A stretch of 37,307 bases of DNA from Candidatus Sumerlaeia bacterium (GCA_038208905.1 JBBQYG010000019.1:1-37307), one strand, 5' to 3'. Shown: positions 375 to 34,587, numbered from the stretch's first letter. Translations and numbers: made by a program. The notes: generated by a model from the sequence alone, not told the origin.

Positions 375-2270
375 TCAGTATACGGGTCGGCGCGCAAAGC
401 AAAACGCCGCCGTCCAGTACGCATCGTACAGCGGGTCCTCGGGGTCGAAGCTACTGATCTGGACCTCGGGCGGCGAGGCGTGGATGAAGCGGCCGCCGCC
501 GAGGGAGAGTCCCGTGTGGGTGACGCGCGTGGTCTCGTCGATGAAGAACACAACGTCGCCCGGCTGGAGCAGGCCCTTCTGCCAGAACGTGCCGACGAGT
601 CGTCCCACGAGGACCTGCTGAAAGGCATCGCGCGGTAGTTGAACTCCCTGGGCCGCCCAGGCGACGCCCACGAGGCCGCTGCAGTCGATCCCCTGACTCG
701 TCCGCGCGCCAAAGACATAGGGCGTGCCCAGCATCCGCGCAGCGGTGTCGATGGCGGCGCGCCCGGGGCTGGAGGCCGGATGAAAACGCAGCGCCTCCAC
801 AGCCACGGAATACGACGCCGAGTTCCCCGCGCCGCGGACGGCCCTGGGGAGCGCCAACGTCACGCTGGTCCCGCCGTCCCATCCCTCCACGGGAAGCGCC
901 GCCCCGGCGGGAAGGCGGAAGTCCAGCGCCATCAGGTCCTCCCTCAGCACCGCGCGCGGGCGGCGCATCCACTCGGAGAGCTCCCCCCACGCCATGCGCC
1001 GCACGGTTTCCGACCGCACCCAGCCGATGTAGCCCTCGGGCCCATGAAGGCGTATATACGTCTTGTCGGCGTTCTCCTCCAGCAGCCACACCTCGTCGCC
1101 AAGGATGAGCTGGCTCTGCACGGTTCCGCCCTCCCGCGGGTCTCCCCAGGTCAAGGCCATCGGGATTTGCACGATGCCGTAGATCTCTTCGCCCAGCGCC
1201 GCATCGGGAAGGAGTCGGATCTCGTTCTCCACGGGGCCAACGCCCAGCGCGCGAAAGACCTCTGGCAGTGCCGCGATCAGGCGCGGGTGATTCGCCACGC
1301 CGGAGAGCTTCCATCCGCCGTCGCTCGCCGACACCTTGGCGTCCAGAAGGAAGAACGTGGAATCCGATAGCTGGAACTTCTTGAAATTTGCGATGATGGA
1401 TTGAAGCTGTCCCGCCGTCGTCGGCGGCGCCTCCTGCGACCAGAGTCGACTCGCGATTCCCGCGAAGGGATCGCTCTCTTCACGTGGGGGCACGGGAGCG
1501 GCGTCGGGGAACAGGCGCAGGCGTTCCTCGTCCAGCGCGCCACGCTGCTCCTCCCACATGCGGACAACACCATTGTAGGCGCCGATGGCTTCCTTTTCCG
1601 CGGAGTCCGGCCTCACGACCCACGCATCGAACTCGGGATTGGAGAGGAAGCCGAACTCCACCACCGCGGACGGAATATCGGAACTCGACACCAGCGGATG
1701 ATCGATCACATAGAAGCTGAAGTCCTCCTTCCAGTGAATGGTCTTCTTGACCTCCTCCTCCATGATGCCCGCAAGGGCGCTCTCCAGCGGCTGGGGCTGC
1801 CCCGCCTTGTCCGTCGGCCAGATGAGCATCATCACGCCGTCGGCGGTGCGGCGCGGCGAGCTGTTGTGGTGGAGCGAAAGGAAGAGGTGGGAACGCGTCG
1901 CCTCCGCGATAGCCGTGCGTGCGCCCAGCTCCTCCGCACGCCCGGAATTGCCGGGCGCCACCTTGCGGTCGTCGGTGCGTGTCATGTGGACCTCCGCCCC
2001 GGCATCCTTCAGGAAATGCCGCAGCAGCGACGCCACCTTCAGGTTCACGTCGCCCTCGATCACCTGCGTATTGACGCCGCGCGCGCTCCCCGAATAGCCC
2101 GGCTGGTGGGCGCTCCCGCCGTGCCCGGGGTCCAGGGTAATCACCAAACCGGCGAGCTTGTCCTTTTCGCCCTCGAAGGGAACCGGCCAATCGAGATCAA
2201 CAACATCCTGGCCGCGCACACTCGGCGCGATCAACGAGAGGGCGACTAGTATTCCTGCAATTCGGAGCAT
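375..2270 (-). CDS. secreted N-acetylmuramoyl-L-alanine amidase (Amidase_3) fused to BON-like, SH3 and NlpC/P60 peptidase domains
   Basis: Signal peptide MLRIAGILVALSL. Amidase motifs DPGHGG, EGDVNL, SLHHNS, VVEFGFLSN. SH3-like GPEGYIGWV. NlpC/P60 motifs GTPYVFG, IDCSGLV, HTG, IHAS. Start placed at ATG 2270. Confidence 0.9.
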   Translation of the reverse strand: MLRIAGILVALSLIAPSVRGQDVVDLDWPVPFEGEKDKLAGLVITLDPGHGGSAHQPGYSGSARGVNTQVIEGDVNLKVASLLRHFLKDAGAEVHMTRTDDRKVAPGNSGRAEELGARTAIAEATRSHLFLSLHHNSSPRRTADGVMMLIWPTDKAGQPQPLESALAGIMEEEVKKTIHWKEDFSFYVIDHPLVSSSDIPSAVVEFGFLSNPEFDAWVVRPDSAEKEAIGAYNGVVRMWEEQRGALDEERLRLFPDAAPVPPREESDPFAGIASRLWSQEAPPTTAGQLQSIIANFKKFQLSDSTFFLLDAKVSASDGGWKLSGVANHPRLIAALPEVFRALGVGPVENEIRLLPDAALGEEIYGIVQIPMALTWGDPREGGTVQSQLILGDEVWLLEENADKTYIRLHGPEGYIGWVRSETVRRMAWGELSEWMRRPRAVLREDLMALDFRLPAGAALPVEGWDGGTSVTLALPRAVRGAGNSASYSVAVEALRFHPASSPGRAAIDTAARMLGTPYVFGARTSQGIDCSGLVGVAWAAQGVQLPRDAFQQVLVGRLVGTFWQKGLLQPGDVVFFIDETTRVTHTGLSLGGGRFIHASPPEVQISSFDPEDPLYDAYWTAAFCFARRPVY

Positions 2271-2382
2271 CGTAGGATTCCGCAACGGAGAGTGGCCACG
2301 CGAGAATCATGACCCATGCGCGGATTGGACACAAGTGGGAGTGTATGCTATTCAGTAGAGCGTTCCTCGCGATAGCATAAGC

Positions 2383-3661
2383 TTATTCGCTGGGAAGCGG
2401 TGCCCTCGAGGGCGGGCGGGCCATACACGGCAGAATGGGGATCTCGCCCATGTGGGTATATCCGAATACACTCGCATGGGCGGAGGATGGTCGGGCTACC
2501 TTCGAGCGGCCAATAGATTCATGGGAATGCTGCAACTCTGACTCCGGCAACCGATACCTCTTCAACACAAGCGCCGCCCCATCCCACGTCCACAGTTCTC
2601 CCCGCGCCGGAAGGAGATAGGGACGCGGCCATGTCTTGTTGGCGCCCGGAATCGCAATACGCAGGCTCTCAGACCCGTCCGCCCGGGTCAAAAAAACCGC
2701 GTTCTCGGCGGGGCGCGCGATCCACCATGCGATGGAGGCCGTTGAAGTCTCGAATCAGGAAACCACCATTCGGCGCCGCCACGATGTCGGTTGGATAGTT
2801 GGGATCGCGGCCCCATCCCGCCTTCATGCTGACCAGCCGGCGAAACTCCCCGGGGTCGTCGCTGCCAAGCAGAGGGGGGAATGCCGGACCGCGCCCCTTG
2901 AGATACGGGCCCACGGGGAATGTTTGCGACCAAACGATCCCAGCGCGCGGGTCCAACAGAACCGCGGATCTCGTCTTGAGATCGATACCCATGCACAGGA
3001 GCCAAGGAGTTCCTTTCACCACAGCCGAAGGCATCAGATAGTCCAACGAATTCCCCGCCGGGGTGCGATCCTCATGGTTCTTCTGGCGATGCAGGAATTC
3101 GCCATCGCTCAGGCGGAAGGCCCAAAGCCCGGAGAACTCCTCGGTGGTGCCGCACCCCCGGATAGTGAAGAGCGCCCAGTCGCCCTCGACGCTCACATGC
3201 ATGCTCGAGACCATCGGCGCAGGATCCGTATCCATGACGTTGCACCGCGCGCGCTAGAACCGATTGTCCAGGCGTGGTGTGCCAACAGGGTTCAGAATGA
3301 TAAGCGCCAGCTCGCCGTAGTCGCTCGAATTGCCGGGACTCGGGTAGTGGGCCACTCCCTTTGTCAGGGCGTTTCCGACGATCACTCCCCCGTCGGTCAC
3401 GATGGCGTCGCGAAGCGTGACTCCCCGCTGCCACGACCACTCCACCGCGCCATCGCGGGTAAGCGTATAGACACCCGGCCCCGTCCCCTGGCGCTCGCTC
3501 GGCTCGATGTGGAGCTGGTATTCGCCGGACGGCGATGCGTAGGTCGCGGGGTTGACGAGGGGCGTCGGAAAGCGCGAGGCGGCGAGAGGGCGCGTTGCCA
3601 GCATCGACAATGCTCCCAACACAAGCATTGCCAGACAGGACCATCATGGATTCTTTGGCAT
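2383..3661 (-). pseudogene. decayed gene for a secreted, probably beta-propeller-like protein
   Basis: One frame from ATG 3661 reads MPKNP*WSCLAMLVLGALSMLA...RF*RARCNVMDTDPAP..., with in-frame stops at 3644-3646 (TGA) and 3254-3256 (TAG). It then shifts frame near 2690-2750 into ...TRADGSESLRIAIP...LWTWDGAALVLKRYRLP. Confidence 0.65.
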
Positions 3662-6736: not shown

Positions 6737-6827
6737 TTAATTGCAATTATTGATACTTCGTTCGCAAGAGGGGATTCCCCCCTCCGACCCGACCGAATAC
6801 ATCTCACACTGTGAAGGAGCACCCCAC

Positions 6828-7832
6828 ATGAAGAAGCATGTTTTCGCAATGCTGGCCGCCGTCGCGATGGCGGGCGGCGCCCAGGCGCAGGAGTACTTCC
6901 TGTACTATCCCCACACCGGCGAGAAGGTCGCCGCCAAGGACATCCCCGTCCCTTCCGCCAAGGCTCTTGCCGAGAAGACAACCTGGAAGGGCGCTGGCGG
7001 CCTGACCGTGAACTTCATCTACAGCGATCCCGCCACCGTGGGCTGGAACGATACCACAGTCGGGGCAACCCGCAAGGCCACGCTGCAGGCTGTGTTTGCC
7101 TACGTCGATAGCGTCCTGAACCATGTGGCCACGATTGATGTGGTGTGCCAGGTTTCGGATTTCAACGCCTCCGGCGCATTGGGTTCCGCCGGGTCCCTTT
7201 ATGAGGTCGGCGATGGATTTTTTGACGCCATCTCGAAGGAACACATCGTCACGGGTGTCGATCCCGTCCCGGGTGCTGGATTCGAGGACATCTTCATCAC
7301 GATGGACTTCGGCTATATCTGGAACAACGGCCTCGGCGCGCCCGCCATCAGCGAGTTCGACCTTTTCACCGTGCTGCTCCACGAAGTGACACACGGGCTT
7401 GGCTTCGCATCCCTGGCCCAAGCGTCGGGCGCCAGCCAATACTCGAGCGAGCCGCCCCCCAACAAGGCCTTCACGAAGTGGGACAACCTCCTTTTCCGCA
7501 CCTCTGGCGCGGCCAAGCTGTGGTCGGGAGTCTCCCCCAACTATGTCGGCGGAACCTTGGCCGGTGGAGACAATACGTTGGACTTCCGCGGCACGAACAC
7601 CCAGACGAGCTTTGGATCCTTCCCCCCCATTTACTCCCCCAACCCATTTCAGTCCGGCTCCAGCATCTCACACTGGCAGCTCATCGCGCCGATTCCCTCC
7701 AACGCCGTCATGCGTCCTGCCGTTGCGGCGGGCGTCTCCAACCGGGCCTATCTGCCCTTCGAGATCCAGACGCTCAGGGACTTGGGCTACACCGTCAACG
7801 TGACCGCCGTTCCCGACTGGAACCTCTACTGA
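6828..7832 (+). CDS. secreted zinc metalloprotease (HExxH) with C-terminal VPDWNLY motif
   Basis: RBS GAAGGAG; signal peptide MKKHVFAMLAAVAMAGGAQA; LLHEVTHGLGF; GSSISHW; AVMRP Met-turn-like segment. Confidence 0.85.
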   Translation: MKKHVFAMLAAVAMAGGAQAQEYFLYYPHTGEKVAAKDIPVPSAKALAEKTTWKGAGGLTVNFIYSDPATVGWNDTTVGATRKATLQAVFAYVDSVLNHVATIDVVCQVSDFNASGALGSAGSLYEVGDGFFDAISKEHIVTGVDPVPGAGFEDIFITMDFGYIWNNGLGAPAISEFDLFTVLLHEVTHGLGFASLAQASGASQYSSEPPPNKAFTKWDNLLFRTSGAAKLWSGVSPNYVGGTLAGGDNTLDFRGTNTQTSFGSFPPIYSPNPFQSGSSISHWQLIAPIPSNAVMRPAVAAGVSNRAYLPFEIQTLRDLGYTVNVTAVPDWNLY

Positions 7833-7863: not shown

Positions 7864-7911
7864 GAAGACCGGATGGCGGGCCCCGCGCCCCCATCCGGTC
7901 TTCGGTTTTTT
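7864..7911 (+). terminator. intrinsic terminator
   Basis: Perfect 13-bp stem GAAGACCGGATGG / CCATCCGGTCTTC followed by GGTTTTTT. Confidence 0.85.
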
Positions 7912-7954
7912 AGGCAGCCATCAAAAATTCCCTTGGAAGTGTCTGAATTTCGTT

Positions 7955-7990
7955 TTGACAAGGTGAAACTCTGGCATAGCCTTTCTTGTC
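7955..7990 (+). promoter_or_regulatory. putative promoter/operator of the CarH-like gene
   Basis: TTGACA (7955) - N16 - TAGCCT (7977). Inverted GACAAG...CTTGTC brackets the -10. Confidence 0.45.
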
Positions 7991-8040
7991 CCCACGGAAA
8001 CCGGGTCGCCCCCGAAACGGCGGCGAGGGATACCGAGCGA

Positions 8041-8967
8041 ATGGAAATGCCCATGCAAGAGTTGGAAGCAGAGACGGAGGGAGCACTGAGCATCGGCGCG
8101 CTTTCCCGCGCGACGGGGATCAGCATCCATAGCCTGAGGATGTGGGAACGCCGCTATGGGGCGCCGGTGTCGATGCGCCGCTCCTCCGGGCATCGGCGCT
8201 ACTCCCCCGACGAAGTCCCCCGCCTGCGCGCCGTGGCCCGCGCCCTGGCCTCGGGGCTTCGCGCTGGGACGGTAGTGCCCGCAACCATCGAGGCCATCGA
8301 CGACATGCTTAATTCGGGGCTTGGGGGCGCCGCCATCGAGGCGAACAGCAGCGTCGTCATCAGGCTCCGCGAAATGATGACGGCGGCCCGCGAACTCGAC
8401 GAGGCCAGCCTTGGCAGGATACTGGAGGAGGATTGGGTCGCCCTTGGCCCGCTGCGATTCATGGAGGACCGCGGCGTGCCCTTCATGCGGGACCTTGGCG
8501 AGGAGTGGAAGTGCGGGAGTCTCGGCGTCGCCCAGGAGCACTTTGCCAGCGAGCGCCTGAGCGACTTCCTCGCAGCGAAGTGGCGCGCGCTAAACCGCGA
8601 GGCCGCCGGCGCGCCTTTCGTTCTGGCGACACTCCCCAACGACCTTCACCGCATGGGCCTCCTCATGGCGGCTGTCAGCACAACGGTCGCCGGGCGGCGC
8701 GTGGTTTTTCTGGGCTCCGGGGTTCCTGTGGAGGAAATCGCCCAGTCGGCACAGATCGCCAAGGCTGCGGCCGTTTGTGTCGGTGTGTCGGGGGCGACTC
8801 CGCCACGCCTTGCCAACACCGCCGCCCGCCAGTTGCTCGATCTGCTGCCCAAGCGGGTTTCCGTCGTGTTTGGCGGGGCCGTCGCCGGACAGATCCGTGT
8901 GGAGAAAGTCCAGATTTTCCGCGAGATTGCGTCGTATGCCGCATGGGTTGGCCAGCTAACCCCGTAA
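8041..8967 (+). CDS. carH: MerR-family regulator with cobalamin-binding domain (CarH/LitR-type photoreceptor)
   Basis: MerR HTH SIGALSRATGISIHSLRMWERRYG and RRSSGHRRYS. W-x9-EH motif (WKCGSLGVAQEH), D-x-H-x-x-G (DLHRMG), VFGG. Start is 8041, 8047 or 8053. Confidence 0.88.
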   Translation: MEMPMQELEAETEGALSIGALSRATGISIHSLRMWERRYGAPVSMRRSSGHRRYSPDEVPRLRAVARALASGLRAGTVVPATIEAIDDMLNSGLGGAAIEANSSVVIRLREMMTAARELDEASLGRILEEDWVALGPLRFMEDRGVPFMRDLGEEWKCGSLGVAQEHFASERLSDFLAAKWRALNREAAGAPFVLATLPNDLHRMGLLMAAVSTTVAGRRVVFLGSGVPVEEIAQSAQIAKAAAVCVGVSGATPPRLANTAARQLLDLLPKRVSVVFGGAVAGQIRVEKVQIFREIASYAAWVGQLTP

Positions 8968-8999
8968 GGTTTTCTCTCGCCACCGCTCTGGAATGGTAA

Positions 9000-9011
9000 T
9001 TGCCTAGACAA
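9000..9011 (+). promoter_or_regulatory. candidate CarH/LitR operator
   Basis: TTGCCTAGACAA matches the site at 21906-21917 at 11/12 positions. Both lie about 60-70 bp upstream of an SDR start codon. Confidence 0.4.
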
Positions 9012-9070
9012 TTAGTGCGACACGGGGAACGGGATAGTATCCCCGCCCGGCGCAAGCATCGGGGGCGCTC

Positions 9071-9838
9071 GTGTCCGATTTGGATAACAAGACATTCTGG
9101 ATCACCGGTGCCAGCAGTGGCATCGGCGCCGCCACGGCGCGCCGCCTAGCCGCTCCGGGGCGTCGAATCGCCCTGACCGCCCGCCGCCGGGACGCCTTGG
9201 AGGCGTTGGCCGAAGAACTGAGAAAAACCGGCGCCACCGTCGAAGTCCACCCCGCCGACGTGACCGACCGGCAGGCGGTGCTTTCCGCCGGGGAACACAT
9301 CGCCGCCAGTCTGGGCGCTGTGGATGTCCTTTTTTCCTGCGCGGGCGACTACGAGCCCTTTGACGCGACAAAATTCGACAGCGCGCGGATCGAGCACACG
9401 ATGCGCGTGAATTACTCCGGCACGATGCACTGCGTCCAGGCGGTGCTTCCCGCCATGATCGCCCGGCGCGCCGGCTATCTGGTCATTGTGTCCAGCATCG
9501 TCGGCTATCGCGGGTTGCCCAACTCATCGCCATACAGCGCGACCAAGGCCGCCCTGATCAACTTTTTCGAGGGCCTGCGCTTCGACCTGAAGCGCCACCG
9601 CATCGACGTGTCGCTGGTGAATCCCGGATTCGTGAAGACCGATCTGACGGACAAGAACGAGTTCCCGATGCCCTTTCGCATCACGGCCCCGGAAGCTGCG
9701 CAGAAGATCGTCGCGGGGATGGAGAAGCGTCGGCGCGAGATTCATTTCCCGTGGCAGTTCACGTGGACGATGAAGCTGCTGCGCGTGATTCCCTTTCCGA
9801 TCTATAGCTGGCTGATCCAGTCGAAGGTGGCCAAGTGA
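9071..9838 (+). CDS. short-chain dehydrogenase/reductase
   Basis: TGASSGIG, YSATK (YxxxK), NPGFVKT. Stop overlaps the next start (GTGA). Confidence 0.92.
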   Translation: MSDLDNKTFWITGASSGIGAATARRLAAPGRRIALTARRRDALEALAEELRKTGATVEVHPADVTDRQAVLSAGEHIAASLGAVDVLFSCAGDYEPFDATKFDSARIEHTMRVNYSGTMHCVQAVLPAMIARRAGYLVIVSSIVGYRGLPNSSPYSATKAALINFFEGLRFDLKRHRIDVSLVNPGFVKTDLTDKNEFPMPFRITAPEAAQKIVAGMEKRRREIHFPWQFTWTMKLLRVIPFPIYSWLIQSKVAK

Positions 9839-11106
9839 GCAGCGGCGCGCTCCGCATCGCGGTGATCGGATCGGGAATCTCCGGCATTGTGGCCGCGCAC
9901 CTCCTTCAGCGGCGCCACGCGGTGACGCTCTTCGAGAAGAAGAGCTATGTTGGCGGCCATACCAACACCGTGAACGTGGACGACGGACCCGACGCGGGAA
10001 CGCCGGTGGACACGGGATTCATTGTCTGCAACGACAAGACATATCCCACGTTTCACCGATTCCTGAAGGACCTTGGCGTGCGGTGGCGCTGGGCCGACAT
10101 GTCATTCGGATTTCACGACGAGACCACCGGCCTTCAGTATGCGGGAACCACGCTGTCGGGCTTGTTTGCCCAGCCCGTCAACGCGCTGAATCCGCGGTTC
10201 CTCCACATGCTGTGGGAGATTCGCCGCTTCAGCCGCCTGGCGCTCCGCGATCTCGGCAACCACCGCCTCGACCGGATCAGTCTGGGCTGGTACCTGCGCC
10301 GCCACCGATTCGGCGCGGGCTTTATCGACAACTTTATCGTGCCGATGGGCGCGGCGATCTGGTCCACGCGGGCCGACAGGATGCTGCGTTTCCCGGCGTG
10401 GACCTTTATCCGATTTTTCAAGAATCACGGCCTACTGGAATTGAAGGATCGCCCGCGGTGGCAGACCATCGTGGGCGGCAGTCAATCCTATGTGAGGGCG
10501 TTCCTCGCGCGCTTTGCCGGCACCGTAAGGCTCAACGCGCGCCTCGCCGCCGTGATCAGGTCCGAATCCGGCGTGACCATTCGCCACGACGACGGCCAAG
10601 ACGAGCATTTCGACCAAGTGGTGATCGCGGCCCACGCCGACGAGGTGCTGCGCGTGCTGGGCGATCCCTCGCCCGACGAACGGCGCCTCTTTGGCGCGTG
10701 GCGCTATGAGCGCAACCGCGTGGTCCTTCACACCGACGAGGCCGTGATGCCGCCCAACCGCCGCGCGTGGGCATCGTGGAACTACACGCGCGAGGCCCGG
10801 GCCGACCGCGGCGCGGCCCTATCGATGACATACGACATGAATCGCCTCCAGGGGTTGAAAACGCGCCGTCGCTATCTGGTAACTCTGAATCGCAAGGGCC
10901 CCATCCACGAGTCGCGCGTCCTTCGCGAGTTCCACTACCGGCACCCGCTCTATACCACGGCCTCCATTGCGACCCAGGCGGAAATCGCCGCGCTGGGCGG
11001 AACCAACAACACATGGTTTTGCGGAAGCTATCACGGCTTCGGGTTTCACGAGGATGGTGCGAAATCCGGCGCCGCGGTGGCCGCGGGATTCGGAGTTACA
11101 CTCTAG
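9835..11106 (+). CDS. FAD-binding oxidoreductase COG2907 (UfaD-like fatty acid desaturase)
   Basis: IGSGISG, GGHTNTV, VDTGFIVCN, FFKNHGLL, AWASWNY, GFGFHEDG. Adjacent to a cfa-like gene. Confidence 0.88.
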   Translation: MSSGALRIAVIGSGISGIVAAHLLQRRHAVTLFEKKSYVGGHTNTVNVDDGPDAGTPVDTGFIVCNDKTYPTFHRFLKDLGVRWRWADMSFGFHDETTGLQYAGTTLSGLFAQPVNALNPRFLHMLWEIRRFSRLALRDLGNHRLDRISLGWYLRRHRFGAGFIDNFIVPMGAAIWSTRADRMLRFPAWTFIRFFKNHGLLELKDRPRWQTIVGGSQSYVRAFLARFAGTVRLNARLAAVIRSESGVTIRHDDGQDEHFDQVVIAAHADEVLRVLGDPSPDERRLFGAWRYERNRVVLHTDEAVMPPNRRAWASWNYTREARADRGAALSMTYDMNRLQGLKTRRRYLVTLNRKGPIHESRVLREFHYRHPLYTTASIATQAEIAALGGTNNTWFCGSYHGFGFHEDGAKSGAAVAAGFGVTL

Positions 11107-11178
11107 TGCAAAACGCTGAAACACCTCGAGGCGCTGAATTGCAGGCGACCCCTATCTCCCCGATGCGGATGGATCGAA

Positions 11179-12450
11179 ATGGACTCTGAGGCCACTACCA
11201 ATCAATCGATCGCGCTGAGCGGCCAACGGTCGGGTCCCATCGAGCGGCTCGCCCAAAAGGCTGTGCTCTCGCACTTCGCAAAAATCCGCCGAGGGTATCT
11301 GGAGATCCAGACGCCCGACGGAGACTGTCACGCATTTGGCGACGAGTCCTCCGCGCTGCGCGGCATCGTCCGCGTCCGCGATACGCAGTTTTTCCGCCGC
11401 AGCCTGGTCGGCGCCGACATTGGATTCGGCGAGTCCTACATGGAGGGCGAATGGGATTCCCCCGATGCGACGGCGGTGCTCCGCGTCCTTGCCGAAAACA
11501 TGCAGCACGCCGACGAGCGTGGCTTTCTCGCGAATCGGATCGTGCGCGCGGGCGACCGCATCCGCCACTTCCTGAACGCAAACACTCGACTCGGCAGCCG
11601 CAAGAACATCGCGCGCCACTATGACTTGAGCAACGACTTCTTTCGCGTCTTCCTCGACGAGACGATGACATACTCCTGCGCGCTCTGGCGGCGGCCGGAG
11701 GAGACGCTGCGCGAGGCCCAGCTCGGCAAGATCCACGCCCTGATCGCGCAGGCCCGCATAGGGCCCAACGACCACGTGCTGGAGATCGGCTCGGGATGGG
11801 GAGCGCTCGCAATCGAGGCCGTCCACAAGACCGGATGCCGCGTCACGACGGTGACCCTTTCCCGCGAGCAGCTCGCGGTCGTGCGGGAGCGCGTCAATGC
11901 CGCCGGCCTCGAGGACCGGATCACTCCCATGCTCTGCGACTATCGCGACGTGCAGGGACAATTCGACAAGGTGGTCTCGGTCGAGATGCTTGAAGCCGTG
12001 GGCCACGAGTATCTGGGCACGTTCTTCAAGACGGTGGATCGGCTCCTGGCGCCCAACGGCATCGCAGCCATCCAGGTGATCACAATCCCGGACCAGCGCT
12101 ACGACAGATACCGCCGCAGCACGGACTGGCTGCAGAAGCACATTTTCCCCGGTGCCGTGGTGCCATCGCTGACCGCGCTGACCAACGCGATGACGCGCGA
12201 TTCGTCGCTCATGATCGAGCGCGCGGAGAACATCGGCATCCACTATGCCCGCACGCTGCGCGAGTGGCGCCAAGTATTCCTCGCCAACATCGATTCCATT
12301 CGCGGGATGGGATTCGACGACCGGTTCTGCCGCATGTGGGACTACTACCTGCGCTACTGCGAGGCCGGCTTCGAGAGCCGCCTTCTGGGCACCATGCACC
12401 TGATGCTGACGCGGCCCAACAACATCACGCTGCCCGTCCATGGCGAGTAA
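11179..12450 (+). CDS. cfa: cyclopropane-fatty-acyl-phospholipid synthase family SAM methyltransferase (Cfa/UfaM-like)
   Basis: GFGESYMEGEW, NIARHYDLSNDFF, MTYSCA, LEIGSGWG, SVEMLEAVG, HIFPG, WDYYLRYCEAGF. Confidence 0.92.
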   Translation: MDSEATTNQSIALSGQRSGPIERLAQKAVLSHFAKIRRGYLEIQTPDGDCHAFGDESSALRGIVRVRDTQFFRRSLVGADIGFGESYMEGEWDSPDATAVLRVLAENMQHADERGFLANRIVRAGDRIRHFLNANTRLGSRKNIARHYDLSNDFFRVFLDETMTYSCALWRRPEETLREAQLGKIHALIAQARIGPNDHVLEIGSGWGALAIEAVHKTGCRVTTVTLSREQLAVVRERVNAAGLEDRITPMLCDYRDVQGQFDKVVSVEMLEAVGHEYLGTFFKTVDRLLAPNGIAAIQVITIPDQRYDRYRRSTDWLQKHIFPGAVVPSLTALTNAMTRDSSLMIERAENIGIHYARTLREWRQVFLANIDSIRGMGFDDRFCRMWDYYLRYCEAGFESRLLGTMHLMLTRPNNITLPVHGE

Positions 12451-12787
12451 CCCCACGCGGGCCGTCCGCCTGGCGGCCACGGCGGTGCTGGTCGCCTTCG
12501 TCGGCTACCTGTGCTGGGAGTTCGCGTTCAACATGCCGTCGAGCTTCGCCGCCGTGATGAGCGAGTTCTGGGGCCGGGCGATGCTGGTGGACCTCTACAT
12601 CGGGGTCGCAATCTTTGCGGCTTGGGTGATCTATCGAGAGGCGGCGTTGCTGCCGCGGGTCCTCTGGCCCATCGCATTTCTCTTCCTTGGCAACGTCGCA
12701 ACACTCCTCTACGTTCTGATTGCGCTTCGGTCGGCAACGGGGCCCGGTGGCATGAATCAATTCTTTCACGGAAGGCGAACCAAATGA
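12440..12787 (+). CDS. small membrane protein, DUF1475-like
   Basis: Three hydrophobic segments; WGRAMLVDLYIG, WVIYRE, LGNVATLLYV. Overlaps both neighbours. Confidence 0.75.
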   Translation: MASNPTRAVRLAATAVLVAFVGYLCWEFAFNMPSSFAAVMSEFWGRAMLVDLYIGVAIFAAWVIYREAALLPRVLWPIAFLFLGNVATLLYVLIALRSATGPGGMNQFFHGRRTK

Positions 12788-13353
12788 CGGCGATCAAACT
12801 CAGGCATCTTGCTGCCGCGATCCTATGTATTGTGGCGTGGGCGATTCCGCTCGCGGCGAAAACCTCGTCCTCGCAGGTCTGCGTTGAGAAGAACTGCTAC
12901 CCCCGCGTCGCGACCATTGCCGAAAAGGAAGTCGCCCTGCGCGGCGCAGCGCTCCTGCGCTTCTGGGGGTTCCATATCTATACGGCCGGCTACTATGAAG
13001 GCAACCGCTCCGCCGATGCGCCGCCCTCTCGCAAGCTCGTCCTCAACTACCTGCGGACGATCACCAAGAAGGACATCGTGAGGGCGACCGAAAAGGGGAT
13101 CGAGAAGAACCCCGACGCCAATCGCGCGGAGCTGGCCGAACGCCTGGACTTGCTCTACTCCGCGTATGTGGACGTGAGGAAGGGCGACAGCTACGAGATT
13201 GTCTATACACCCGGGACCGGCACCGCCGTCAGCTTCAACGGCACCCTGAAAGTGACCATTCCCGGCGACGATTTCGCCGATGCATTTATTGGCATCTGGG
13301 TCTCGGAACACGCACTCAGCCAATCGCTCAGGGACAAGTTGACCAGCGGCTGA
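12784..13353 (+). CDS. secreted chalcone-isomerase-like fatty-acid-binding protein
   Basis: ATGA overlap with the previous gene; signal peptide; LRFWGFHIYTAGYY, DVRKGD, FADAFIGIWVS, LRDKL. Confidence 0.85.
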   Translation: MTAIKLRHLAAAILCIVAWAIPLAAKTSSSQVCVEKNCYPRVATIAEKEVALRGAALLRFWGFHIYTAGYYEGNRSADAPPSRKLVLNYLRTITKKDIVRATEKGIEKNPDANRAELAERLDLLYSAYVDVRKGDSYEIVYTPGTGTAVSFNGTLKVTIPGDDFADAFIGIWVSEHALSQSLRDKLTSG

Positions 13354-17095: not shown

Positions 17096-18052
17096 ATGAG
17101 CCGAATCGCCACCATCGAGGGCGTGGACCTCCACCTGGCCCATCCCGATACCATCGAGCTGAAGTGGATCGGCAACGACCGCGTCAGGGAGCAGCTTCTG
17201 GCGTCGTGGCTGGTGATCGCCCCGGGGGACCTTCCGCTGAACCCGCGCCTGATCGGCAAGCCCGGCGTGGGAAAAACGACGCTGGCATACGCCGTGGCGC
17301 GCTCCTTGGTGGAGAACGTGTATATCATGCAGTGCACCATGGACACCCGGCCAGAGGACCTGATCGTGACGCCGGTCATCGCGGGAGAGGGCCGCATCGC
17401 CTATCATGCGTCGCCGCTCGTTTCGGCGATGATCGCCGGCGGCGTTTGCGTGCTGGACGAGGGGAACCGCATGTCGGAGAAGAGCTGGGCCTCCCTCGCC
17501 CCGCTCCTCGACCGCCGCCGCTATGTTGAGTCCATCGTCGCCGGCCTCAAGATCCCCGCCCATCCCGATTTCCGCGTCTGCGTCACGATGAACGACGACG
17601 CCTCTACCTACGAGCTTCCCGAGTACATCGCCTCGCGCCTCCAGCCCCAGATCGAGGTGACGTTTCCCGACCGCGACGAGGAGATCGAGATTCTGCGCTT
17701 CAACGTCCCCTTCTCGGAAGAGACGCTGCTCGCCTATGTGGCCGACTTCCTCCAGAAGGCCCACTCGGTGGACCTCCCCTTCACCAGCCGCGATGGCGTG
17801 AACATCCTGCGCTTTGCGCTCAAGCTCGGCGCGCTGCGCAAGGAGCCCCCCGCCGGATACCTCAGCGACGCCATCGAGGCCGTCCTCGGCAAGGACGGCG
17901 TCGAGTTCCTGGACACCGGCGTGCCTTCCGACCGGCTGCGCGGCGCATCGCGCGGCATGGATGAGGACGAGGACCGCGACGAGCTGGATATCGAATCGCT
18001 CGACGACCTGTTCGAGATGGAGGACGAGGACGAGGATGACGACGAGCGTTAA
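17096..18052 (+). CDS. MoxR/CbbQ-like AAA+ ATPase with acidic C-terminal tail
   Basis: Walker A GKPGVGKT, Walker B VCVLDEGNR, VTMN sensor, ASRL arginine finger, D/E-rich tail. Confidence 0.88.
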   Translation: MSRIATIEGVDLHLAHPDTIELKWIGNDRVREQLLASWLVIAPGDLPLNPRLIGKPGVGKTTLAYAVARSLVENVYIMQCTMDTRPEDLIVTPVIAGEGRIAYHASPLVSAMIAGGVCVLDEGNRMSEKSWASLAPLLDRRRYVESIVAGLKIPAHPDFRVCVTMNDDASTYELPEYIASRLQPQIEVTFPDRDEEIEILRFNVPFSEETLLAYVADFLQKAHSVDLPFTSRDGVNILRFALKLGALRKEPPAGYLSDAIEAVLGKDGVEFLDTGVPSDRLRGASRGMDEDEDRDELDIESLDDLFEMEDEDEDDDER

Positions 18053-20288: not shown

Positions 20289-20665
20289 TTAGGGGCATTG
20301 GAATGGACGTGGTGGAGATCCAGCGATTCGAGGAGGCGCTCGAGCGACACGGCGAGCGCCTGCGCAACCGCCTGTTCACTCGGGCCGAGCAGGAATACTG
20401 CGACGCGCACCCCAACCCCGGGACGAGCTATGCCGCGCGCTTTGCCGCCAAGGAGGCCGTGGCCAAGGCCCTGGGAACGGGGATCGCCGGCGGCATCCAG
20501 TGGATCGACATCGAGGTGGTCCGCGACAGCGCGGGGCGCCCGTCGATCATCCTCCACCGCCGCGCGCGGGTGGTCTTCGCCGAACTTCGCGGCCAGCGTG
20601 TTTGGCTGAGCATGACCCACTCGCGCCTGGTCGCCGCGGCCAACGCGGTGATCGAGGGCACGTGA
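20285..20665 (+). CDS. acpS: holo-[acyl-carrier-protein] synthase
   Basis: GIGMDVVEIQR, RLFTRAE, ARFAAKEAVAKALGTG, LSMTHS. Confidence 0.96.
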   Translation: MIRGIGMDVVEIQRFEEALERHGERLRNRLFTRAEQEYCDAHPNPGTSYAARFAAKEAVAKALGTGIAGGIQWIDIEVVRDSAGRPSIILHRRARVVFAELRGQRVWLSMTHSRLVAAANAVIEGT

Positions 20666-21765
20666 GCGGGACGACCCCAGAGGATGCTGTCGCATTCCAA
20701 GGGAGCGTGGGCGTCTCGCCCGCGCGTTGCCCTTGTGGCGGCGGGGCATGGGCAGGGTGCCCATGCCGCTATTGGCGCGCCCTTGTATGTATATTTGTAT
20801 ATGCGATTGCGCTATGGGGTCCGGCGGTGGCCCAGGATGCGCCGTCCGAAGACGACCTCGCGCGCGAGCGCCTGCGGCAGCTTCGCGATTTCCGCCAGTC
20901 CCAGTATCCCGGATTCGTCTCCGAAGAGGCGGTGGCGCCGACGCCCGCCCCCGAGCCGTCGGTCCCTCCGACGCCCGCCCCCCAGCTCCTGGTGGACGAC
21001 ACGCCCTCCACCACGACGTGGTTCCAGACGCGCGAACGCCTCGAACCCGGGATGGAGGAAATCCGCATGCTGATGATTTCCCGCGCCACATCGCAGGAAA
21101 TCGCGGCTCAGGAGGAGAAGTTCATCGGAGACCTGGACGCGGTCGTCCGCATGGCGAATTTCCAGGCGCCCGGCCAGGCGGGCGGCCTGGGGGCAATTCG
21201 CTCTCGCATTGTCCGCCAGCTGGGCTACCTGATCGAGGACTACGCCGCGGGCGAGTGGCGAAAGCTGGAAACCACCGAGGAACTCCTGCGCCGCTCGATG
21301 AAGGAGGCCCAGTATCTCCTCTTCCGCTCCGACCTCGACCGCGGGCTCGCTTCGCCCGCCGCCACGGTGCTACCCGCCGACTGGGACACGAGCCGCTTTG
21401 GCAGTCCCCGCTTCGCGGCGCAGATAGCCGACTGGGACGGCGCGCGCCTGCTGGGTTCCTATCGCGGGCGCCACGCCCAGATCGAATCCGCGCTCCGCCG
21501 CAATCGCCAATTCCACGATCCCATCGCCGCGCGGGAGATGGCCGAACTCGCCCGCCAGCTCGCCACCCGCGTCAACGAAGTCCCCGTCACCTCCGCCACC
21601 GCCTTCCGCGACGCGGCCCTGCGCCTGGACGTGCTCGCCGAGAATCTCGACGACCAGCTCGCGGCCCAGAACACCCTCTACGCCCGCCGCCAGCTCCGCC
21701 TCATGGGCCACGCCATCGACGATGTGGAAGCGTATCTTGCGCTGCGGCGGCAGAACGCGGATTAA
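20662..21765 (+). CDS. secreted alpha-helical hypothetical protein
   Basis: GTGA overlap with the acpS stop; hydrophobic ALVCIFVYAIALWGPAVA-QD signal; Pro-rich linker followed by a helical body. Confidence 0.65.
   Translation: MSGTTPEDAVAFQGSVGVSPARCPCGGGAWAGCPCRYWRALVCIFVYAIALWGPAVAQDAPSEDDLARERLRQLRDFRQSQYPGFVSEEAVAPTPAPEPSVPPTPAPQLLVDDTPSTTTWFQTRERLEPGMEEIRMLMISRATSQEIAAQEEKFIGDLDAVVRMANFQAPGQAGGLGAIRSRIVRQLGYLIEDYAAGEWRKLETTEELLRRSMKEAQYLLFRSDLDRGLASPAATVLPADWDTSRFGSPRFAAQIADWDGARLLGSYRGRHAQIESALRRNRQFHDPIAAREMAELARQLATRVNEVPVTSATAFRDAALRLDVLAENLDDQLAAQNTLYARRQLRLMGHAIDDVEAYLALRRQNAD
20702..20769. repeat. REP doublet copy 2 (diverged), inside a CDS
   Basis: GGAGCGTGGGCGTCTCGCCCGCG ... 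CATGGGCAGGGTGCCCATGCCGC. Left flank CTGTCGCATTCCAA matches CTGTCGTATTCCAA of copy 3. Confidence 0.75.
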
Positions 21766-26133: not shown

Positions 26134-26265
26134 TGTGGATCCAATCGATGGGGCTTTACCATGTGGAAATCGAGCAGGATAAGGCCTGCATTTTAAGGGA
26201 AGCTTTAGTGCGATAATCCTCGCCAACGAGACTAAGCGCAAGCCCGACTCGGCGCCACTCCGGAA

Positions 26266-30536: not shown

Positions 30537-30732
30537 GGCAGGAAGCGCCGACTCCGTTCCCTCCTTCTCCCTCTCGTTCCCTGCTTTTCGCTGCCGTTCC
30601 CTGCCATCAAAAGGCTTGCCGTGCAATGCCCCAGACTCTAAACCTGCCTCAAGGCCGACTAAGTGGAGGCCACGCAATGGCCCACGACCGCGCAGGTGGA
30701 GGGTTGGGAATCGCCACCGGGACCAAGGGGAT

Positions 30733-32145
30733 ATGGCACGCTTCGAACTAAAAGACACCGACTACTCGTTCAATGCGAGTCTCGACCCGTTCATGGTGCT
30801 CAAGAAGATGGGCTTCACCGAGCACTCCATGTATCAGGAGGGTGCCATTGTCCGCGTCCACTGCCCCATCCATAAGGACCTCGTCCGCAAGTCCCTGATC
30901 GTGGACACGGCGGAGCGCACGTTCCGCTGCCAGTATGCCAACTGCGACGCCCACGAGGGCGGGCTGATGGTGGAACTCGTCGCGCTGTACTACGACTGCG
31001 AGATTTCCGAAGTTTCCAAGGCCCTTTTTGGCGAGGAAGACAAGTCGGCGGACCTCTTGTTCCGCGGCGAGATGTTCATCAACCAAGGGCGCCATCTGGA
31101 GGCGCTGCCCTACCTTGAGCAGGCCACGGATCTGAACCCGCGGCACGAGATCACGCGATGCAAGCTGGCGGCGCTCTATCTGGAGCTGGGCCGCAAGGAC
31201 GACGCCTATCGCGAGTACCTCTCCGCGGCGGAGAGCTACGCCGTTCGCGGCGAACTCGACAAGACGCTCTCCATCTACAACATCCTCATCATGCTTCAGC
31301 CGGGCGCCGTAAAGGCGCGCAAGGAACTCTCCTTCCTTTTCGCGCGCCTTGGCCGGCCCGACGCCGCCGCGGAGCAGCTCAAGTGGGTGGTGGACTTCTA
31401 TCTGAAGTACAACCAGCACAAGGGCGCCCAGGAAACCTGCGAGCAGATCATCGAGCTGGATCCCACCAACGGCATGGCCTATTTCCTGATGGGGAAACTG
31501 CTCCAGCTTACCGGCAAGCGCGTTCCCGCCGTGCAGAACTACGAGCAATCCGTCCGCCTTCTCCTCGCAGCGGAGGACCTCAACCGAGCCTCCGAGGTGC
31601 TGGCCGAAGCGATCGAACTCGCTCCCACGAATTCCCGCCTGAAGGAACTGAAAGGACAGCTTGACGAGGCATTCGCCAAGCTCCCCCCCGGGGAAGTGAA
31701 CTCCTCTTTCAACGACCCGCTCGCCCTTCGGGAAGACGAGGCCAACTTTATCGAGTGGCTCGCCGACGTGGACACCAAGTTGCAGTCGGGCACCTTCCAG
31801 ACGTCCCTGCGCGACGGCGTCAAGGTCAGCACCGACGGCATTCCCGTCTTCGAGGCTCCCAAGGACTCGGTCGGCGCCGCATCGTCCGATGGCAGCTCGC
31901 GGGACGAGACGTCGGAGATTTCGCCGGAGGACCGCCGCGTGGCGCTGTGCCTGGGCGACATGAAGGAACTCGATTCCGATCAGCTCGAAGCTATGCGCCA
32001 GCAGCTCATCAGCATGTTCACCGACGTCCGCAAGAGCTACGAGGAAGGCCTCCTGTCCGACTGGGAGATGCGCACCATCAAGGACTTCTACAAGTCCTTC
32101 TGCATCGCCGTGGACATGCACCGCCGCAAGAGCAGCGCCGTCTGA
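30733..32145 (+). CDS. CHC2 (DnaG-type) zinc-finger domain fused to TPR repeats
   Basis: HCPIH...SLIV...FRCQYANC..GG zinc-binding pattern, several TPR units, acidic linker, helical C-terminus. RBS AAGGGG, ATG 30733. Confidence 0.8.
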   Translation: MARFELKDTDYSFNASLDPFMVLKKMGFTEHSMYQEGAIVRVHCPIHKDLVRKSLIVDTAERTFRCQYANCDAHEGGLMVELVALYYDCEISEVSKALFGEEDKSADLLFRGEMFINQGRHLEALPYLEQATDLNPRHEITRCKLAALYLELGRKDDAYREYLSAAESYAVRGELDKTLSIYNILIMLQPGAVKARKELSFLFARLGRPDAAAEQLKWVVDFYLKYNQHKGAQETCEQIIELDPTNGMAYFLMGKLLQLTGKRVPAVQNYEQSVRLLLAAEDLNRASEVLAEAIELAPTNSRLKELKGQLDEAFAKLPPGEVNSSFNDPLALREDEANFIEWLADVDTKLQSGTFQTSLRDGVKVSTDGIPVFEAPKDSVGAASSDGSSRDETSEISPEDRRVALCLGDMKELDSDQLEAMRQQLISMFTDVRKSYEEGLLSDWEMRTIKDFYKSFCIAVDMHRRKSSAV

Positions 32146-32231
32146 CAGTTTACCACTGGCTGGGAGCCACCCGCCAGCGGCCCCGCACGAGTCACATTCC
32201 CAACCCACACAACACAGGGGAACGCCTCACC

Positions 32232-34487
32232 ATGCGCAGAATGCTTGGACTCGCCCTCTTTTGCCTAGCCGCCACCGCCGCCGCCGATATCACGCCGGAC
32301 ACGTTTCAGATCGAGGAGCCGTTTCCCGCCCTCACCTTCGCCCATCCCATCCAGATGCTGGAAGCACCGGACGGCTCCAACCGCATCTTCGTGCTTGAGC
32401 GCGCCGGCAGGATCAAGGTGTTCCCCAAGTCGGGCTCCGTGACCCCCGCCGAGGTCGCCCTCTATCTGGATATCAGCGCCCGCGTCGCAACGCAGCGCGA
32501 CTTCGCCCTCAACAGCTTCGCCTTCCACCCCGACTTCGCGGCGAACGGCGAGGTGTATATACACTACAACTGGAACAACGGCCTGGGAGTCGACGACCTC
32601 GACTACGGCTCGGGGCGCATCTCCCGCATCGTCGCGGCAAACCCCGCCGACAATGCGATCAGCAGCGCCGCGATGGACGAGGAGGTGCTCTATCAGCACC
32701 GCAAGCCGAAGGTTCCCGAGCTGACTTTCCCGCTTCAGGATCACAATGGCGGCACCATCGCCTTCGGCCCCGACGGCATGTTGTATATCGCCTTTGGCGA
32801 TGGCGGGTCCACCTCGCCCCAGCTCTATGCGAATACGAACCCCCTCAGCTTCGATCCTCTCGGCAACGCCCAGAACACCGAGAACAATCTGGGCGCCATC
32901 ATCCGCATCGACGTGGATGGCGCGCCCGACCCGGGGCTGAACTATCGCATCCCCACCGACAATCCCTTCTACAGCGGCGGCCCCGCGGGCGCCCTGACGC
33001 GGAAGGAAATATGGGCCTATGGCCTGCGCAATCCCTGGCGCATGGCATTTGACAATGCGACCGGCGACCTGCTGGCTGTGGATGTCGGCGCCAAGTCGGC
33101 GGAGGAGATCAACCTCATCCTCCCGGGGCAGAACTATGGCTGGCGACTGATGGAGGGGAATAGCTGCGTTCCATCTCCGCCAGCGCCGGACCCGTGCGTC
33201 ACGACGGGGCTGACACCGCCGCTCGTCGAGCACATCTGGACGACTGGTCTCTATCGCTCGCTGACCGGCGGGTATTCCTACCATGGGTCTGCCGCGACGC
33301 AGCTCGACGGCCGCTTCATCTACGCCGACTATGTGGACGGCGGCATCTTTGCGATGAAGCGCGACGGCTCGGCGGCCACGACGCTCCGACTGCTCGACAC
33401 CGCCCACCTGATCGCCGGCTTCGGCCAGGACCAGTCCGGCGAGGTGTATATCCTCAGCTACTCCGCCACCGGCCGCATCTGGCGCCTCAAGGCTGACCCC
33501 GCCGTCTATCCCTCCGCCTCCCCCGCGACCGAGAACGCCACGGAAATCGTCGCGCTCAACGGCCAGCTTGTGGCCACAGACGTTGGCGGTGTCACATCCT
33601 ACGAGATCGTGGGCCAGCCCGCATCCGGCACGCTGAACCTCGCCGTCGCCACGGGCGCATATACATATACACCGAACAACCTGGCCGCGAACACGGTGGA
33701 CACCTTCACGTTCCGCGCGCTGGATGCCCAGTCCAACGAGTCCAACCTCGCCACGATCACAATCAACATCGCCGCCGCGAATGACGCACCGGCGATCGCG
33801 GGCACGCTGGCGGCGACGCTGCCGGGCGGCGACACGACCCTGACGATCACAACCACGACGCTTGAGGGAACCGATCCCGACTCGCCCGCCGCGAGCGTCG
33901 TCTTCCGCGTCGGCACCGCGCCGGCCCACGGCACCATCAACGTCTCGGGAACGCCCGCCACTCAGTTCACCCGGGCCGACCTCGCGGCGTCGCTCGTGAC
34001 CTACGCCTTCACTGGAAATTCCAACGTCACTTCCGGCGATGCCTTTGCCCTAACCGTCGAGGACGAGAGCGCCGTCGCCTCGGCGCCGTCCACTGTCAGC
34101 ATCACGATCCTCGACATCAACGACGCTCCGTCGATCACCGGAACGCTGGCGGCGACACTGCCGATCGGCGATACGATTCTTCCGATCGCCGCGGCACTCG
34201 GCGCCACCGATCCCGACTCCCCCGCCGCCAACGTCCTCTTCCGCGTGAGCGCCGCGCCGGCCCACGGCACCGTGAACGTTTCTGGTGTACCCGCAACGCA
34301 GTTCACCCAGGCCGACCTCGCCGCGTCGCGGGTCACCTATGTCTTCACCGGCAACGCCGCGCTGGTGCTCGGCGACACCTTCGGCGTCACCGTCGAGGAC
34401 GAGAGCGCCGTCGCATCCGCGCCCTCTGCATTCACGGTCACCATCGAGCAACCCACGACGCCCGTCGATGACTGGAAAGTCCTGTAA
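32232..34487 (+). CDS. secreted PQQ-dependent sugar dehydrogenase (GSDH) with Ig/cadherin-like repeats and C-terminal VDDWKVL motif
   Basis: Signal peptide; HNGGTIAFGPDGMLYIAFGDGG, IWAYGLRNPWR, EEINLI..GQNYGW, FGQDQSGEVY. One Big_9-like domain and two cadherin/CSPG-like domains. Confidence 0.9.
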   Translation: MRRMLGLALFCLAATAAADITPDTFQIEEPFPALTFAHPIQMLEAPDGSNRIFVLERAGRIKVFPKSGSVTPAEVALYLDISARVATQRDFALNSFAFHPDFAANGEVYIHYNWNNGLGVDDLDYGSGRISRIVAANPADNAISSAAMDEEVLYQHRKPKVPELTFPLQDHNGGTIAFGPDGMLYIAFGDGGSTSPQLYANTNPLSFDPLGNAQNTENNLGAIIRIDVDGAPDPGLNYRIPTDNPFYSGGPAGALTRKEIWAYGLRNPWRMAFDNATGDLLAVDVGAKSAEEINLILPGQNYGWRLMEGNSCVPSPPAPDPCVTTGLTPPLVEHIWTTGLYRSLTGGYSYHGSAATQLDGRFIYADYVDGGIFAMKRDGSAATTLRLLDTAHLIAGFGQDQSGEVYILSYSATGRIWRLKADPAVYPSASPATENATEIVALNGQLVATDVGGVTSYEIVGQPASGTLNLAVATGAYTYTPNNLAANTVDTFTFRALDAQSNESNLATITINIAAANDAPAIAGTLAATLPGGDTTLTITTTTLEGTDPDSPAASVVFRVGTAPAHGTINVSGTPATQFTRADLAASLVTYAFTGNSNVTSGDAFALTVEDESAVASAPSTVSITILDINDAPSITGTLAATLPIGDTILPIAAALGATDPDSPAANVLFRVSAAPAHGTVNVSGVPATQFTQADLAASRVTYVFTGNAALVLGDTFGVTVEDESAVASAPSAFTVTIEQPTTPVDDWKVL
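33780..34445 (+). repeat. intragenic tandem duplication of an approximately 113-aa cadherin-like domain
   Basis: Units start at 33780 and 34119 and share NDAP.I.GTLAATLP, TDPDSPAA, APAHGT.NVSG.PATQFT.ADLAAS, TVEDESAVASAPS. Confidence 0.9.
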
Positions 34488-34516: not shown

Positions 34517-34548
34517 GAAGCCCCCGGGAAATCTTCCGGGGGCCTTTC
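34517..34548. terminator. probable bidirectional terminator between convergent genes
   Basis: GCCCCCGGGA-AATC-TTCCGGGGGC stem flanked by GAA and CTTTCGTTT. Confidence 0.7.
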
Positions 34549-34587
34549 GTTTCCAAACTCGCGCCCAAGATGCACGCGCCACGCGCG

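Follow-up and report, generated by a model that had tools for sequence, protein, structure and literature searches.

A recurrent C-terminal tryptophan tail on exported enzymes, a candidate sorting or anchoring tag associated with Sumerlaeota

A stretch of bacterial DNA of 37,307 nt with 65% G+C (GCA_038208905.1 JBBQYG010000019.1:1-37307; the whole stretch is called the window below) encodes two exported and otherwise unrelated enzymes, a zinc metalloprotease and a pyrroloquinoline quinone (PQQ)-type glucose/sorbosone dehydrogenase, which end in a similar tail of a few residues around a tryptophan. The analysis of this tail, referred to as the W tail, identified it as a real, recurrent and lineage-associated C-terminal motif outside the known classes of sorting signal. 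It recurs in four unrelated domain families, namely the protease, the dehydrogenase, an EEP phosphoesterase and a PPC protein, and is placed on Sec-exported enzymes by Sumerlaeota and probably by some allied uncultured lineages. That it serves as a short linear tag for the sorting or anchoring of these enzymes is judged to be as likely as not.

Two exported enzymes of the window with similar C termini

The protease is encoded by an open reading frame (ORF) at 6741..7832 on the plus strand, the likely start of which is an internal ATG at 6828, giving a product of 334 residues. With 47.5 bits against a curated cutoff of 80 it is a distant relative of the NCBIfam family NF038122 ('metallo_LGF') and not a member by that cutoff, and no Pfam family was matched at E<=0.001. 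An AlphaFold2 model with a mean predicted local distance difference test (pLDDT) score of 86 was used in a structure search, which returned weak matches of the matrixin (MMP)/karilysin type, the best at E 7e-3 and none at or below 0.001. The dehydrogenase ORF lies at 31755..34487 on the same strand, with a likely start at an internal ATG at 32232 and a product of 751 residues. Its beta-propeller is a member of PF07995 (E 7.7e-43; 147.5 bits against a gathering cutoff of 25), and its score of 77 bits with TIGR03606 is below the cutoff of that model. Signal peptides were called throughout by eye together with a hydrophobic score, which for the best N-terminal 10-mer was 2.60 in the protease and 2.56 in the dehydrogenase (P0063). 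The features of both genes are collected in Table 1.

A preliminary description of the window had read the two ends as T-A-V-P-D-W-N-L-Y-stop (7803-7832) and T-P-V-D-D-W-K-V-L-stop (34458-34487), on two exported proteins with nothing else in common, and had reported the tag to be absent from the other exported proteins. These readings were confirmed: the translations agree, both N termini resemble signal peptides, Pfam detects no shared domain, and the amidase/NlpC-P60, GH20 and PhoX ORFs have no tryptophan near their ends. Both stops are true gene ends, since the in-frame sequence 3' of 7832 encodes no hydrophobic stretch and because a hairpin followed by a T-run lies 3' of the dehydrogenase gene.

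Taken by itself, the resemblance within the window is weak and not beyond chance. In a comparison of unrelated C-terminal 9-mers, 145 of 44,778 cross-family pairs (0.32%) had at least four identities, and about 1.4 such pairs are expected among the 435 pairs formed by the roughly 30 window proteins; for the 15 pairs of exported window proteins the expectation is 0.05. The resemblance is nevertheless more than chance, because the motif recurs outside the window.

Table 1. Features of the two tail-bearing genes of the window
Feature	Position	Strand	Basis
Exported zinc metalloprotease gene, 334 residues	6828..7832	+	ORF and translation; distant relative of NF038122
Protease signal-peptide-like N terminus, 21 residues	6828..6890	+	Basic start, hydrophobic core, A-x-A-like end; by eye from translation
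Protease H-E-x-x-H-x-x-G zinc-binding motif	7380..7403	+	H185, E186, H189 and G192 invariant in alignments A1 and A2
Protease C-terminal tail, last nine residues, core D-W-N-L-Y	7803..7829	+	Translation; TGA stop 7830-7832
Exported PQQ-type glucose/sorbosone dehydrogenase gene, 751 residues, two cadherin-like repeats	32232..34487	+	Pfam PF07995, PF16184, PF17803
Dehydrogenase signal-peptide-like N terminus	32232..32285	+	By eye from translation
Dehydrogenase C-terminal tail, last nine residues, core D-W-K-V-L	34458..34484	+	Translation; TAA stop 34485-34487
Terminator-like hairpin with T-run, 3' of dehydrogenase gene; G+C stem of 8 bp, loop of 8 nt	34520..34552	+	Read directly from sequence

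Recurrence of the tail in four protein families

A search of 5.8 billion proteins with the protease yielded 58 matches, and the tail is present in the three best of them: P0005, which at 99% identity is the same protein, P0006 (46%) and P0007 (47%). Each ends in V-x-D-W-x-h-Y, where h is a hydrophobic residue, in the register given by the preliminary description. Across 185,579 species genomes, 79 protease loci were located, none above 42% identity, and their ORF ends were classed by pattern matching. Among the tail types recognized, PEP-CTERM-like ends are the most frequent (25 of 79), followed by other hydrophobic-plus-basic tails (10) and T9SS-like ends (6; T9SS, type IX secretion system); 28 ends are of other kinds and 7 ORFs run off the contig. 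The W tail was found at 3 of the 79 loci, ending ...D-W-V-L-Y-N-Y, ...H-W-N-L-Y and ...D-W-T-I-Y-E (L001, L003 and L015, respectively). These three loci, and no others of the 79, bear Sumerlaeota or Sumerlaeia in their titles, and none of the 69 other readable ends carries the tail. In alignment A1 the window protease tail matches, column for column, the T-A-V-P-E-P start of the PEP-CTERM signals of relatives such as P0026, P0028 and P0029. The PEP-CTERM model TIGR02595 (cutoff 16) scored 24.3 bits on P0028 and 16.2 bits on P0026, with P0023 and P0029 just below the cutoff.

For the dehydrogenase, 1.84 billion representatives were searched with the whole protein and the best 150 matches were listed, among which 51 dehydrogenase-type ends were inspected. 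Nine of these 51 carry the W tail (P0172, P0203, P0226, P0242, P0309, P0192, P0252, P0229 and P0299), including the closest relatives among the matches listed, P0172 (64% identical) and P0203 (51%), which retain the V-x-D-W of the window protein and add one terminal residue. The architecture in front of the tail varies from the propeller alone to the propeller with cadherin-like repeats or with a cytochrome-like C-terminal region. T9SS-like ends were seen by eye in 10 of the 51, one of which (P0313) was confirmed by TIGR04183. A separate search with the cadherin-repeat half returned 109 repeat proteins, of which the query itself was the only one with the tail; this set is uninformative on orthologues and was used as a control. 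In P0263, another dehydrogenase relative, a W-x-L-Y-E motif stands 16 residues before the end, which a lost stop codon or a sequencing error may explain.

The third family came from the comparison loci. In 1.07 Mb of loci outside Sumerlaeota the sole match to the strict form of the motif was an exported EEP-family protein (PF03372), encoded next to the protease homologue of an unclassified bacterium (L039). Used as a query, it gave 79 matches, in 12 of which (its own copy, P0330, included) the tryptophan is fourth from the end; it is fourth to sixth from the end in 15. The tailed EEP proteins include short forms as well as some that contain an LTD domain. In other EEP relatives the end is formed by dockerin-like repeats, a PEP-CTERM signal or a T9SS domain, the last confirmed for P0402 by TIGR04183.

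The fourth carrier is an exported PPC-like protein of 184 residues in locus L015 (7084-7638), encoded 2.3 kb upstream of the tailed protease of that locus. Its match to PF04151 is weak (23.6 bits against a cutoff of 25.9; E 9.4e-5). It ends as its neighbouring protease does, in A-R-[D/N]-W-x-h-Y-E, and a P/T-rich linker precedes its tail.

The preliminary description had mentioned similar ends on Sumerlaeota proteins. This is borne out: in addition to the titles of L001, L003 and L015, the dehydrogenase relative P0299 is named as a Candidatus Sumerlaeia protein by NCBI, and the EEP carrier P0377 is likewise assigned to Sumerlaeia.

A second short tail, P-V-x-L-S-x-F-x-x-[E/D], was observed in the same families. 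It stands at the very end of the proteins, in the same position as the W tail and likewise without a membrane helix. Its carriers are, among the protease relatives, the 879-1709 region of L011 (Thermoanaerobaculia) and P0009 and, among the EEP relatives, P0337, P0339, P0366, P0369, P0371, P0373 and P0374. It may be a sister tag of the W tail.

Sequence properties of the tail

By eye, the consensus of the tails is a small or polar residue, the tryptophan, any residue, a hydrophobic residue and Y, F or L, followed by zero to two further residues. The tryptophan is invariant. The residue before it is most often D, N, E or S, and the residue after it is free; the second position after it is L, I, V or M, rarely R or H. 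Sub-lineages have their own variants, V-x-D-W among the relatives of the window proteins and A-R-[D/N]-W-x-h-Y-E in L015. The register T-x-V-x-D-W-x-h-h, proposed for the window pair in exact alignment with the stop, was therefore too specific. Its core, [small/polar]-W-x-hydrophobic-[Y/F/L], holds in the wider set, but the exact distance to the stop does not, as three to five residues follow the tryptophan. The valine three positions before the tryptophan is kept in all six close relatives of the two window proteins and is missing from L001, L003 and L015, and the threonine five positions before it is not kept in relatives.

A short P/T/S/A/G-rich stretch usually precedes the tail. Such linkers resemble the stalks in front of other sorting signals, which fits a sorting or anchoring tag. 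In the AlphaFold2 model of the protease, residues 328-334 have pLDDT values below 50, and the tail is accordingly predicted to be free and disordered and not packed on the enzyme. Signal-peptide-like N termini were recognized by eye in 20 of 27 distinct tailed proteins. The other seven start inside the mature domain and look N-terminally truncated; for two of them longer cluster members restore the start.

Position and frequency of the motif

The position of the tryptophan was compared with its background frequency in each family. In the EEP set, 12 proteins have it fourth from the end against 0.79 per position at positions 7-30 (Poisson P 6e-11), and in the dehydrogenase set 11 have it fourth or fifth from the end against 2.3 expected (P 3e-5), values that overstate independence because matches within one family are related. 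The cadherin-repeat control gave 2 against 2.3 expected (P 0.68). Counted over ORFs of at least 100 residues, the strict motif, which was refined after having been seen and is thus defined post hoc, occurs in 5 of 343 ORFs of the window and the three Sumerlaeota loci, against 1 of 3037 ORFs in the 1.07 Mb of other loci (Fisher 6e-5); the background rate is put at about 1 in 1500-3000 protein ends, or roughly 0.03-0.07%. Restricted to the one match found independently, the comparison is 1 of 339 against 1 of 3037 (P 0.19).

Comparison with models of known signals

The preliminary description had noted that the tag lacks a membrane helix and a basic tail and so does not fit the sortase or exosortase classes, and had called for a check against existing models. 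The architecture is as described, and the check revealed no NCBIfam (E<=10) or Pfam (E<=0.001) model that fits the tail, TIGR02595, TIGR04183 and other sorting models included. Relatives do give PEP-CTERM matches (P0028 and P0026) and T9SS matches (P0402 and P0313) in the same NCBIfam search.

The P-E-P signature is missing from the window tails, which have V-P-D-W and V-D-D-W instead, and neither the helix nor the basic cluster of PEP-CTERM is present, the window proteins stopping three residues after the tryptophan. TIGR02595 gave no match at E<=10 on the two window proteins, on their last 40 residues, on P0006 and P0007, on the L015 pair or on the L039 EEP protein, and no exosortase was found by Pfam among the ORFs of the 37-kb window. 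No T9SS C-terminal domain (TIGR04183/PF18962) was matched on the tailed proteins tested. Of an LPXTG/sortase signal, the L-P-x-T-G motif, the membrane helix and the basic tail are all missing from the window tails, and the WxL domain PF13731 has no match among 22 window ORFs (Pfam, E<=0.001). The beta-signal of outer-membrane proteins was considered and rejected: the tail-bearing proteins, a zincin by its fold model, a beta-propeller and an EEP protein, are soluble enzymes; the hydrophobic residues of the tail show no alternation; and the last residue of some tails is E, D, R or H.

A full-text literature search, which did not extend to supplements, found no description of such a tail. The main text of a study of Sumerlaeota genomes contains no occurrence of 'secretion system' or 'outer membrane' (PMC8092238).

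Interpretation of the tail

The proposal that the tail is a candidate sorting signal stands in that the motif is recurrent, lineage-associated, outside the known classes and located where known signals are located; its function as such we infer. The argument for sorting or anchoring is that the tail follows stalk-like linkers and that three of the enzyme families bear proven sorting or anchoring modules at the same position elsewhere. In the mechanism envisaged, Sec export would come first and would leave a free, disordered C-terminal tail, which a putative dedicated receptor or processing enzyme would recognize in the periplasm or at the outer membrane. The tagged enzyme would then be delivered to the cell surface, or retained at it, with its C terminus as the tether. 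In this way the tag would replace the PEP-CTERM/exosortase signals, T9SS domains or dockerin-like modules of homologous enzymes in other phyla. Sortase-type signals are read inside the inner membrane, which is impossible for a tag that lacks a membrane helix.

Several observations weigh against a sorting tag of Sumerlaeota. In addition to the relatedness within families mentioned above, four of the five strict matches in the Sumerlaeota set were reached via a query family or the finding itself, and the remaining independent match is not significant alone (P 0.19). The enrichment counts cover the window and the fetched loci and not whole proteomes. Most tailed proteins are from metagenome contigs, so that their lineage range is poorly known; the best match of the window protease to a named genome, a Sumerlaeota, is only 42% identical, and among the Sumerlaeota genomes in Table 1 of PMC8092238 G+C contents of 54-60% are listed, against 65% in the window, which is thus only loosely placed in Sumerlaeota. 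The zero to two extra residues after the motif, and the tails that end in E, D, R or H, argue through their variable distance to the end and their charge against a simple reader of the free carboxylate. Finally, no candidate sorting machinery was found near the tagged genes examined.

The alternatives differ from a sorting tag in what, if anything, would recognize the tail. It could be read by a periplasmic PDZ protein, an HtrA/DegS-type or a tail-specific protease, and control stability, maturation or stress signalling instead of destination. Most tails close on a hydrophobic or aromatic residue with the tryptophan three residues earlier, and in this they resemble hydrophobic PDZ ligands and the DegS-activating Y-x-F ends; the tail is also predicted to be free and disordered. 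However, the two L015 proteins, P0299, P0354, P0360 and P0364 end in one or two extra, often charged residues, unlike classical PDZ ligands, and the neighbourhoods of the tagged genes examined contain no PDZ gene. The position shared with PEP-CTERM, T9SS and dockerin modules also points to localization, and recognition by a PDZ protein is considered unlikely.

The tail might also need no dedicated machinery, its tryptophan and Y/F sticking by themselves to lipopolysaccharide, an envelope glycan or the membrane interface and so holding the enzyme at the cell. A flexible stalk that bears two aromatic residues at a spacing of three positions would suit such an adhesive end, and the lack of machinery near the tagged genes agrees with it. 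This lack is weak evidence, as known sorting tags are usually served by enzymes whose genes lie elsewhere in the genome. Five or six residues would provide very little binding energy, and the conserved polar residue before the tryptophan and the hydrophobic one before the tyrosine suggest a specific reader. A self-sufficient adhesive end is rated as quite unlikely.

The alignment of the protease tail with the T-A-V-P-E-P start of PEP-CTERM in P0026, P0028 and P0029, together with the prevalence of PEP-CTERM in that family, would be explained if the tail were a degenerate remnant, left as a functionless linker and a few residues after loss of the exosortase and deletion of the helix and basic cluster. 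A functionless stub is expected to decay, yet the tryptophan and the hydrophobic/aromatic pair, which are foreign to the PEP motif, are conserved at 36-64% identity while the linkers vary. The tail moreover follows cadherin-like, LTD, PPC and beta-propeller domains and is also found where the relatives within a family have T9SS domains or dockerins in place of PEP-CTERM. A remnant is rated as improbable.

Chance or composition without biological meaning, for which the 1.4 pairs expected in the window and the post hoc motif might speak, is close to refuted by the family searches and control counts, given the sharp tryptophan peak at the fourth or fifth position from the end in two further families and not in the control, the 5 of 343 ORFs against 1 of 3037, and the conservation of the tail in orthologues.

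Neighbourhoods of the tagged genes

The protease is the only gene family common to the window, L001, L003, L015 and L039. In the window a TPR gene (30733-32142) lies upstream of the dehydrogenase and was considered as a receptor. It was rejected, as its product has neither a signal peptide nor a membrane helix, has a zinc-finger-like N terminus and, judged by its sequence, is cytoplasmic. A 20-bp unit is repeated 2.5 times just upstream of this gene (30554-30604).

In L015 a protein of 602 residues with about ten membrane helices and C-terminal TPR repeats is encoded at 8044-9852, between the two W-tailed genes and next to a GT9 heptosyltransferase-like gene. It has generic TPR matches only and no similarity to the 684-residue membrane protein of the window; its position is suggestive, and nothing ties it to the tail. 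L001 (613-1479) and L003 (4166-5227), both on the minus strand, share a membrane protein without a Pfam family that is 58% identical between the loci. A radical SAM/B12-binding protein is the other conserved neighbour of the W-tailed protease in these two loci.

Directly downstream of the tagged protease of the window, the region 7873-13353 encodes a MerR-type regulator with B12-binding domains (CarH-like), then an SDR protein, an amine-oxidase-like flavoprotein, a cyclopropane-fatty-acid-synthase-like methyltransferase and a chalcone-isomerase-like protein, and may be a light- or B12-controlled lipid-modification cluster. Further on, the region 17096-21765 contains a MoxR-like AAA_5 ATPase (17096-18052) and, after it, two large ORFs listed at 824 and 421 residues; neither of these matches a Pfam or NCBIfam family, and the first ends in TPR-like repeats. 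On the minus strand at 22754-26241, a many-helix membrane protein of about 635-684 residues adjoins a GDSL-type esterase with an N-terminal membrane anchor. The membrane protein belongs to no family and gave only a chance-level match to a model of a putative Leptospira glycosyltransferase. The window ends in a tandem array of the 9-bp unit TCCCGCCGT (37166-37307; 15.8 copies, 93% matches), which on the minus strand forms an open frame, low in third-position G+C, that would encode an R-E-R repeat.

Significance and relation to known sorting systems

C-terminal sorting tags reveal the surface and secreted proteins of organisms that cannot be cultured, and each new tag has led to a new processing enzyme, as with sortase, exosortase, archaeosortase, rhombosortase and myxosortase. 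The W tail, a few residues without a membrane segment, stands where relatives have PEP-CTERM or T9SS domains. Should it prove to be a sorting tag, both the manner and the site of its reading must differ, and the surface proteome of Sumerlaeota would become readable from sequence alone. The tail is also a concrete query for phylogenetic profiling aimed at its reader. As a mere stability or adhesion motif it would be a useful annotation marker of modest interest.

A more far-reaching model is put forward tentatively. In it, Sumerlaeota and allied uncultured bacteria would possess an undescribed sorting system in which a tag of five to seven residues (polar, W, x, hydrophobic, Y/F), with neither helix nor folded domain, is read by novel machinery and sends Sec-exported enzymes to the surface, in place of PEP-CTERM/exosortase and T9SS. 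If such a system exists, the P-V-x-L-S-x-F-x-x-E/D tail would be a sister tag, and both would belong to a wider class of miniature C-terminal tags in diderm bacteria.

Short C-terminal tags read by a receptor are known from the eukaryotic PTS1 (S-K-L) and K-D-E-L signals and from the PDZ-read ends of outer-membrane proteins. As in these, a few C-terminal residues would be the whole signal of the W tail, without a membrane segment; they differ from it in compartment, organism or pattern, and the tail tolerates zero to two extra residues. The WxL domain (PF13731), which binds the cell wall in Firmicutes, has W-x-L near the C terminus of the surface proteins of these monoderm bacteria and is more than 100 residues long. 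The W tail shares a W-x-L-type motif near the C terminus but is not a long domain.

Tripartite signals consist of a signature motif, a membrane helix and an Arg-rich cluster and comprise sortase, exosortase, archaeosortase, rhombosortase and myxosortase types (10.1101/2023.06.07.544157). Like PEP-CTERM, LPXTG, GlyGly-CTERM, PGF-CTERM and MYXO-CTERM, the W tail is a short signature at the extreme C terminus of unrelated proteins with signal peptides, and like the tripartite signals in general it has several copies per lineage, is lineage-restricted and follows low-complexity linkers. In the protease family it takes exactly the position of PEP-CTERM. Unlike PEP-CTERM and the other tripartite signals, it ends three to five residues after the tryptophan, without a helix and without a basic cluster. 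The T9SS C-terminal domain is read after export, in the periplasm or at the outer membrane, and serves the secretion and surface attachment of Sec-exported enzymes; Bacteroidota-type relatives of all three larger families bear it at the position of the W tail. Yet some 70-100 residues make up the folded domain of the T9SS signal, whereas the W tail comprises five to seven residues and is predicted to be disordered.

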